From the IMG/VR virus record IMGVR_UViG_2654587569_000003: a DNA stretch of 38,765 nt. One strand, written 5' to 3'. Positions 37,954-38,521 of this stretch are shown piece after piece. The position numbers and the translations under genes are program-made. The stretch is from a virus. Lineage: Duplodnaviria; Heunggongvirae; Uroviricota; Caudoviricetes. The notes beneath the pieces are model-generated. The model did not search any database. It was given only the letters and a program-made list of their open reading frames with translations, and was not told where the DNA came from. Position 1 is the stretch's first letter; every line of letters starts with the position of its first letter.

Positions 37954-38521
37954 TAGCTAACCAACGAAGCTAAGGTTGGTAATTAAGGAGTTCTCCACGG
38001 GTGAGGTGGAGTGCTTGCGCCGGACACGGGTGAGCATCCGGCACTGACAGTTTACTGAAAGGATATTTCCCTGAAAAGTCAGACCATAACGCGAAAGCGC
38101 ACGGCGAGGTAGCTGGTTCATAGATAGCCTGTCGTTAAATTTTTGTCGACCGTGCGCTTCCGGTTGTGGCAATCCGCGAAATGGCGCGGCGGTAAGTATG
38201 GCGGGGTTATTCCTTCCCCCGTTGCGGACACCGGGTTGTCAGGTTGACCATACGCTTAAGTGACAACCCCGCTGCAACGCCCTCTGTTATCAATTTTCTG
38301 GTGACGTTTGGCGGTATCAGTTTTACTCCGTGACTGCTCTGCCGCCCTTTTTAAAGTGAATTTTGTGATGTGGTGAATGCGGCTGAGCGCACGCGGAACA
38401 GTTAAAACCAAAAACAGTGTTATGGGTGGATTCTCTGTATCCGGCGTTAATTGTTAACTGGTTAACGTCACCTGGAGGCACCAGGCACCGCATCACAAAA
38501 TTCATTGTTGAGGACGCGATA

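Follow-up and report, generated by a model that had tools for sequence, protein, structure and literature searches.

The window analysed here, a 38,765-nt stretch of DNA, contains a non-coding gap of 568 nt (37954-38521) that is bounded by the ydfC stop codon (37953) and the dicB start codon (38522), with both flanking genes on the + strand. ydfC (37735-37953) was taken from the list of open reading frames and carries this name in the RefSeq annotation of a 99.9%-identical genome, its product belonging to a family of unknown function (phrog_1744). dicB, which together with its ribosome binding site occupies 38510-38710 (GAGGA at 38510-38514, coding sequence 38522-38710), is annotated in RefSeq as 'cell division inhibition protein DicB' (phrog_1251). 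By BLAST the 1466-bp neighbourhood was matched in 4765 of 5426 complete E. coli genomes, K-12-type Qin among them, and the annotated order in matching genomes is ydfA-ydfB-ydfC-(gap)-dicB-ydfD. Upstream of the operon lie a CI/LexA-type repressor gene (36374/36431-37147) and then a terminator and promoter region, and it is this arrangement, together with the ydfA-dicB gene order, that makes the 'early-left operon' label of the initial annotation correct. Its remark that no N-like gene is evident downstream of the repressor also holds, as YdfA, YdfB and YdfC match only PHROG families of unknown function. We consider it very probable that the gap represents the spacer between ydfC and dicB in a Qin-type dicBF (early-left) operon of an E. 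coli lambdoid prophage, complete with DicF processing.

DicF and the inverted repeats of the gap

A small RNA had been offered as one reading of the gap, and the gap does encode one. DicF (RF00039) was identified by Rfam at 38296-38347 (+ strand), with 76.7 bits against a gathering threshold of 48 (E 2e-15) and a match that spans the full model (positions 1-52 of 52). The 53-nt form (38295-38347, + strand; fold z = -2.32) has a single-stranded 5' seed region and is identical to the K-12-type copy, and BLAST and RefSeq annotations put it between ydfC and dicB in a lambdoid prophage ydfABC-dicF-dicB-ydfD operon. Its 3' part is an intrinsic terminator composed of a hairpin at 38310-38346 followed by UUUUU at 38348-38352 (-15.9 kcal/mol, z = -2.32); this hairpin and its U-tract had been overlooked in the initial annotation. 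At the RNase E-dependent 5' end of DicF lies a single-stranded AU-rich run, UCAAUUUUCU (38290-38299), which fits the preference of RNase E.

The dicF locus has been known since 1989-1990, and dicF, its terminator and its RNase III and RNase E processing signals are established, so that the finding as originally posed alters nothing about DicF itself. Compared with the dicBF operon of Qin in K-12, gene order is equal (ydfA-ydfB-ydfC-dicF-dicB-ydfD), the region is 96-98% identical, the 53-nt DicF is identical, the terminator is shared, and two long helices are found where the published 190-, 72- and 53-nt RNAs imply them. The operon here, however, stands behind a 238/257-aa CI/LexA-family repressor with a peptidase domain whereas K-12 has DicA, and regulation of the operon may for this reason differ from that in K-12. 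DicF and DicB being cell-division inhibitors, DNA damage could induce both if the LexA-family CI-type repressor is cleavable. This prophage is also apparently far more complete than Qin, as the window contains replication, late-region, tRNA, hok/sok and STnc100 elements.

The inverted repeats that had first drawn attention to the gap exceed chance expectation in 500 dinucleotide-preserving shuffles of 37960-38520. We counted 6 perfect 10-mer inverted pairs no more than 150 nt apart (shuffle mean 0.086) and 3 perfect 12-mer pairs (shuffle mean 0.006), and neither count was reached in any of the 500 shuffles; a 577-nt stretch covering the whole gap has a fold z of -4.65. The 9-bp repeat GGGTTGTCA/TGACAACCC lies at 38233-38241/38261-38269, exactly where it had been reported. 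The other two reported repeats are present with small corrections to their positions: the 10-bp repeat AAGCGCACGG/CCGTGCGCTT occupies 38095-38104/38150-38159, so that its start had been off by one and its loop is 45 nt rather than 46, and the CCGCG-N6-CGCGG hairpin, at 38174-38178/38185-38189, had been placed one base off. The former repeat grows to 13 nt (38092-38104/38150-38162) if one mismatch is allowed. The longest repeat of the region, a 19-nt inverted repeat with 95% identity (38357-38375/38486-38504), had gone unnoticed.

That these repeats belong to small protein genes or act at the DNA level (as operators or recombination sites) rather than as RNA structure is a reading to which we give hardly any credence. 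Short open reading frames do occur on both strands, for example at 38143-38247 (+, 34 aa) and 37957-38172 (-, 71 aa), but RefSeq annotates none of them and has no CDS in the gap of the 99.9%-identical genome. Coding potential is rejected on this ground and on two further ones, namely a C4/C5 single-base indel polymorphism within the gap that breaks the frame in about half of the alleles, and the length variation of one hairpin (hairpin B, below), which does not proceed in multiples of three. The earlier statement that the gap contains no credible ORF is thus well founded. Against a DNA-level site stand the compensatory changes and frequent G-U pairs described below, which are valid only for RNA of the + strand, and our search found no second strand-symmetric signal.

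Long helices and RNase processing

Processing sites were another of the readings initially proposed, and an apt one: the ends published for the 96-98% identical K-12 locus fall within two long helices of the gap. In K-12, the 190-nt form of DicF depends on RNase III, as does its 5' end (Fig. S1 of that study), and the 53-nt form on RNase E; no internal promoter was found for DicF, and most transcripts end at the DicF terminator (PMC10448788). The 190-nt RNA is stable, accumulates in stationary phase and increases in level upon inactivation of RNase E (PMC10448788). The DicF 3' end is formed either by intrinsic termination or by RNase III acting on read-through transcripts, the latter giving a 72-nt form (PMC9438474, PMC5069750); Northern blots and primer extension are behind the processing to 190, 53 and 72 nt (PMC10448788, PMC9438474, PMC5069750). 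It is from this literature on the near-identical K-12 locus that the RNA sizes used here, and their dependence on the two RNases, are taken. Cut sites were placed in the window by subtracting the published RNA lengths from the DicF ends, which carries an uncertainty of about 5 nt, and the published numbering ('positions 813/814', transcript length of 1,146 nt) could not be reconciled with window coordinates.

The more upstream of the two helices is a long irregular hairpin of about 18 bp with small mismatches (38088-38166, + strand), found by the repeat search and having the 10-bp repeat (38095-38104/38150-38159) as its core. With the DicF 3' end at 38347, or at 38352 if the U-tract is included, a 190-nt RNA would start at 38158-38163, in the lower 3' arm of this hairpin, and we infer that the hairpin holds the RNase III cut that makes the 5' end of 190-nt DicF. 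Comparison of 32 alleles shows a conserved stem topped by a hypervariable 45-nt apical part with indels, as would be expected if only the double-stranded part matters. Ahead of the hairpin lies the proximal 3' UTR of ydfC (37954-38087, + strand), for which local hairpins are predicted (fold z = -1.81); this block is a mosaic with 27% to 100% identity to the window across 95 related loci, and the blocks downstream of it have more than 95% identity across these loci.

The second helix arises from the 19-nt repeat, which becomes a 21-bp helix (38355-38375/38486-38506) once G-U pairs are counted and which closes the multi-branched structure of the dicF-dicB spacer (38353-38506, + strand; fold z = -6.35). 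Conservation of this helix includes compensatory changes: one pair alternates between C-G, U-G and U-A, and in a divergent relative A-U pairs have become G-C. Adding 71 to 38295 gives 38366 as the end of 72-nt DicF, which is in the middle of the 5' strand, and the helix is thus a putative second RNase III site that would give both the 3' end of 72-nt DicF and the 5' end of the dicB mRNA. Because the 3' strand of the helix ends three bases before the dicB Shine-Dalgarno sequence, an RNase III cut would leave dicB with a leader of approximately 25-30 nt. Both structures are of the kind expected for RNase III (mostly continuous double-stranded RNA of about 20 bp or more), the hairpin with its approximately 18 bp and the helix with its 21 bp. 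The thermodynamic signal of two elements is modest, with z = -1.86 for the hairpin at 38088-38166 and z = -1.59 for the conserved domain alone (see below).

The spacer also resembles a known small RNA family. Against STnc100 (RF02076) the segment 38345-38554 aligns over the full length of the model with 38.7 bits (E 4e-7), which is under the gathering threshold of 47, and the 3' terminator part aligns poorly over the start of dicB. We regard the spacer as likely to be a diverged STnc100 relative embedded in the mRNA rather than a member of the family; a true copy of STnc100 is found by Rfam elsewhere in the window (24731-24920). In common with STnc100/PasD the spacer has a long closing helix, the 5' strand UGGUGAAU and a CACCNGGAGGCACCNGGCACC hairpin with a compensatory change. 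It differs in lacking the 3' terminator proper to the family, running instead into the dicB start, and in being internal to an mRNA of the early-left operon, whereas the family consists of stand-alone small RNAs of the late region (preprint 10.64898/2026.05.13.724894).

Taken with the K-12 data, these structures suggest the following course of events. Transcription from the promoter downstream of the repressor would pass through ydfA, ydfB and ydfC into the gap, where RNase III would cut the long hairpin (38088-38166) to give an RNA of approximately 190 nt that starts at about 38158-38163. In this RNA a short AU-rich linker would join DicF to a compact and conserved domain of several helices (38163-38278), and cleavage by RNase E in the linker would then release 53-nt DicF (38295-38347). 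The intrinsic terminator of DicF would halt most transcripts. Those that read through would form the 21-bp helix (38355-38375/38486-38506) that closes the STnc100-like structure, and RNase III cleavage there would yield 72-nt DicF together with a dicB mRNA whose Shine-Dalgarno sequence is preceded by a short leader.

Long imperfect helices serve as RNase III signals in other phage early transcripts, such as the lambda N leader and the T7 early region. As in those systems, a polycistronic early transcript is involved, functional RNAs are separated from one another, and mRNA 5' ends are set beside ribosome binding sites; the difference is that processing here also frees a trans-acting small RNA and that RNase E finishes the work.

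A conserved RNA domain upstream of DicF

The segment between the RNase III hairpin and DicF proved to be conserved on its own in public phage and genome collections. It constitutes a structured RNA domain (38147-38286, + strand), the 5' body of the 190-nt DicF precursor, which we delineated with a 27-sequence alignment (A4), RNAalifold and a domain model (CM R1) to which the window scores 157 bits. The core of approximately 116 nt (38163-38278) has a four-helix architecture and includes two of the three repeats initially reported. On the + strand, and as drawn from alignment A4, it is made up of a closing helix (38163-38170/38271-38278), hairpin A (CCGCG/CGCGG, 38174-38189), a short 3-bp helix (38191-38193/38230-38232), hairpin B (38202-38221), which is hypervariable in both sequence and length with pairing retained, and hairpin C (GGGTTGTCA/TGACAACCC, 38233-38269). 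The arms of hairpin C are replaced in relatives by GGGTAACCA/TGGTTACCC, GAGCTACCA/TGGTAGCTC or GGATCACCA/TGGTGATCC, around a 19-nt loop that is invariant. The computed 5' end of 190-nt DicF falls 0-5 nt from the closing helix, which indicates that the stable long form of DicF is the domain plus DicF.

Covariation in related prophages, which had been proposed as a check, supports this fold. Among the 27 representatives of alignment A4 (less than 93% identity), pairing holds in 94.5% of cells, and 14 of the 33 pairs have changed on both sides. The covariation value of 0.216 compares with 0.140 in shuffles, none of 500 of which reach it, and falls to 0.05-0.08 when the partners are slid. RNAalifold independently recovers the helices, the single-sequence minimum free energy structure of 38163-38278 reproduces them, and the frequent G-U pairs fix the strand as +. 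A candidate pseudoknot between the junction and the loop of hairpin C (GUAUGG, 38196-38201, with CCAUAC, 38248-38253, + strand) is perfectly conserved in the alignment. It keeps the status of a candidate because it is accompanied by a single compensatory event (in P1 types) and by two singleton variants that break a pair; viral contigs scanned at junction positions 59 and 60 gave one G-U-compatible variant and these two pair-breaking singletons.

The domain had no match among the 4227 models of Rfam 15 at E values up to 10 over the window, nor did its copies in P1 and cdtI at E up to 0.1 or those of seven further relatives at E up to 0.001. A literature search with the loop sequence returned no paper. 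The domain may be new, and so may its occurrence where early operons begin, both in other lambdoid phages and in P1; part of its conservation may have been noted before in the older dicF literature. The Pas small RNAs were considered as an identity for the domain and ruled out, as they are located in the late region.

Relatives extend well beyond Qin-type prophages. The segment is 88.7% identical in phage cdtI and Stx2c phages and 78% identical in phage P1, where the GenBank record marks a 'dicF-like region', and it is also present in prophages of E. albertii, Citrobacter, Trabulsiella and Erwinia. In cdtI-type phages and in the Citrobacter, Trabulsiella and Erwinia prophages the domain lies in an untranslated early-left leader, between a cI-like gene 400-1000 nt upstream and the first ORF, and in P1 it starts approximately 13 nt past the annotated C1-controlled Pban start. 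An intrinsic terminator follows the domain at a distance of about 20-120 nt in at least 171 of 184 unique instances, while two variant types (L195 and L217) are without an adjacent terminator. The types have entirely different linkers and terminator hairpins, DicF being the Qin-type version. These terminator modules have been exchanged among relatives (DicF, E. albertii, cdtI and P1 types) and the domain has been kept. It occurs once per locus: a 3-mismatch motif search and a filter-off search with the domain model gave no second copy in the 38.8-kb window, and a fuzzy motif search of 265 sequences (264 loci and the window) gave a single match in each of 261 and a second copy in none.

Possible roles of the domain

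Our leading guess, which we hold tentatively, is that the domain serves as a scaffold for a variable small RNA cassette at its 3' side, whose stability and processing it determines. As a compact 5' body it would shield the precursor and make the AU-rich linker accessible to RNase E, a role we think possible. The cassette (DicF in Qin-type loci, other hairpins elsewhere) would be either released or kept as a stable RNA of approximately 190 nt, which we hold with the same reserve. The position of the computed 190-nt 5' end, just outside the closing helix, fits such a scaffold, as does the swapping of the downstream module while the domain is retained. We rate this reading above a read-through function (below) because the 190-nt RNA is stable, accumulating in stationary phase, and rises when RNase E is inactivated (PMC10448788). 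It leaves unexplained the invariant 19-nt loop and joining regions as well as the position of the domain at the very start of the P1 ban transcript, and the variants without a terminator or small RNA cassette (L195, L217) also speak against it. A ligand-sensing riboswitch or attenuator, in which an aptamer would control the DicF terminator through alternative pairing, shares with the domain the layout of transcriptional riboswitches, a multi-helix junction and then an intrinsic terminator. It is nevertheless improbable, since we found no conserved alternative, anti-terminator pairing between domain and terminator. One such pairing, through GGCGGTA in the junction of hairpins A and B, which equals the 5' arm of the DicF terminator, was dropped as it is not conserved in the P1 and L155 terminators. 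Moreover, the linker between closing helix and terminator varies from about 10 to 60 nt with unrelated sequence between types, the terminator sequences of P1 and Qin are entirely different, and no Rfam riboswitch family matches.

The initial annotation had also suggested cis-acting antiterminator elements such as the put sites of HK022. Taken as homology, this does not stand. Searches of the window for HK022 putL and putR, run with blastn-short and nhmmer, gave chance matches only (in the region, at best a 9-mer with E 8.7), and the domain model found nothing in the HK022 immunity region and put sites. Membership of the put family was rejected on the lack of sequence or model similarity, on size and architecture, and on copy number. 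The domain and put are both non-coding structured RNAs in the early operon of a lambdoid phage without an N gene, and relatives of the domain are promoter-proximal and ahead of terminators. However, the domain has approximately 116 nt and four helices whereas put RNA has approximately 70 nt and two stems (PMC9378689), put is present twice (one copy each in the leftward and rightward early operons) whereas the domain is present once per phage, in the window as in 261 related loci, and the domain is not promoter-proximal in the window. The put RNAs act by binding the zinc-binding domain of beta', which renders RNA polymerase resistant to terminators. The nut sites of lambda offer a further comparison. 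Immediately 5' of the closing helix, relatives have GTGCTCTTTCC or GCGCTCTTTTC, which resembles lambda boxA (CGCTCTTA), so that a GCTCTT-type motif directly precedes the domain as boxA precedes boxB in nutL and nutR; as with nut and rrn boxA sites, the leader around these motifs is long and untranslated, and would lie open to Rho. The window has GTGCGCTTCC in this place, a degenerate version (GCGCTT) that is paired within the 3' arm of the RNase III hairpin. A boxB-like stem of 5 bp with a pentaloop is lacking, as is an N gene, there is one site only, and YdfA, YdfB and YdfC are not antiterminator families, so membership of the nut family fails as well.

A functional likeness is a separate matter. 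The domain (38150-38279) is a candidate cis-acting RNA that might help polymerase to read through the next terminator and possibly later ones, which we consider doubtful though worth weighing. By analogy it could resemble HK022 put, or a boxA-containing site of the nut/rrn type, in function and not by descent, a likeness for which we would give a similarly guarded estimate. The absence of an N-like gene nearby keeps cis-acting antitermination a candidate. So do the promoter-proximal placement of the domain in the early operons of two unrelated phage groups, the terminator that follows it in nearly all instances with genes downstream that need read-through, and the free variation of linker and terminator hairpin, which fits a polymerase-modifying mechanism better than one based on pairing. 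The boxA-like motif of relatives points the same way, and the invariance of the loop and joining regions hints at a conserved binding partner. Set against this are the lack of any similarity to putL/putR, the occurrence of just one copy in each of 261 loci and never in the rightward operon, the location of the domain in the window approximately 900 nt from the promoter and behind three genes, the degenerate and base-paired boxA-like motif there, the two variant types lacking an adjacent terminator, and the fact that in K-12 most transcripts do stop at the DicF terminator. The domain, together with a short conserved motif on its 5' side, could conceivably represent an undescribed class of phage RNA, ranging from lambdoid early-left leaders to the first nucleotides transcribed from the P1 ban operon, that provides antitermination or Rho protection in cis without N, but we would not call this likely. 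Such an RNA would act on the transcription complex and allow early-operon expression beyond the next terminator. Under such N-free antitermination DicF would be one of several interchangeable terminator/small RNA cassettes attached to the domain, which is again only a modest possibility.

If the domain controls read-through of early-operon terminators it would be the second protein-independent antitermination RNA after put, and would explain how early-left genes are expressed in lambdoid phages that lack N. Should it be only a processing scaffold, it would still define the real unit of conservation at dicF loci and should guide their annotation.

A few point differences set the region apart from the Qin locus of K-12, one example being position 38228, which is C in the window and A in almost all relatives. 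In P1, an STnc100-like match is found downstream of the domain in the same ban operon.

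Competing pairings and divergent versions of the conserved domain

The four-helix RNA domain upstream of DicF (38163-38278) is closed by a helix pairing 38163-38170 with 38271-38278. Position 38228 is a C in the window and in one other sequence, but an A in almost all relatives (GTTGCGG versus GTTGAGG), and this C makes the segment pair more strongly with nearby CTGCAAC (38273-38279), an alternative to the conserved closing helix that competes with it. In addition, the RNase III hairpin and the closing helix share three bases: the GTT at 38164-38166 belongs both to the hairpin's base (38088-38090/38164-38166) and to the helix's 5' strand. 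Once the hairpin is cleaved, the domain could fold more readily.

The viral contigs L195 and L217 each carry a divergent version of the domain, in which the closing helix and hairpin C (38233-38269 in the window) covary strongly. No terminator lies near the domain in either contig. Their gene context differs from that of the other copies, and a further conserved stretch of non-coding sequence (GGCAAGAGCACTACACCGGATATATGGCC...) comes after the domain.

The DicF position and STnc100-like modules

In eight related loci (L127, L145, L179, L198, L123, L138, L130 and L144) the DicF position is an exchangeable cassette: the domain ahead of it and the base of the terminator (GGCGG/CCGCC) are kept, while the DicF seed and hairpin top are swapped for unrelated sequences. 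These replacement cassettes may represent distinct sRNAs, each acting on its own targets. One relative, L172, carries four consecutive RNA elements in its early-left operon (894-1359), namely a DicF-like element (37.8 bits), an STnc100-like one (38.9 bits), isrK (63.6 bits) and a C4 antisense RNA (80.3 bits).

In phage P1 (L122, NC_005856) the conserved domain (1478-1607; 95.9 bits with our covariance model R1) lies at the start of the ban operon transcript and is followed by P1's own terminator. Approximately 1.2 kb beyond it, after two tRNA genes, is an STnc100-like match (2842-2961, 33.4 bits). The domain and an STnc100-like module thus travel as a pair in this unrelated phage too. The window itself holds a full STnc100 sRNA (24731-24920, minus strand; Rfam RF02076, 123.6 bits), with two tRNA genes upstream (25605-25678 and 25779-25851, minus strand) and a 621-aa ORF downstream (22259-24124, minus strand); its late-region setting is that described for PasD/STnc100.

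The repressor gene and a sok RNA

Upstream of the dicBF-type operon sits a CI/LexA-family repressor (36374-37147, plus strand; 238/257 aa; phrog_4, RefSeq 'LexA family protein') rather than K-12's 135-aa DicA. If the repressor is RecA-cleavable, DNA damage would induce DicF and DicB in this prophage. Finally, a sok antitoxin RNA (30086-30257, minus strand; RF01794, 106.7 bits) implies a hok/sok-type toxin-antitoxin module within the prophage.
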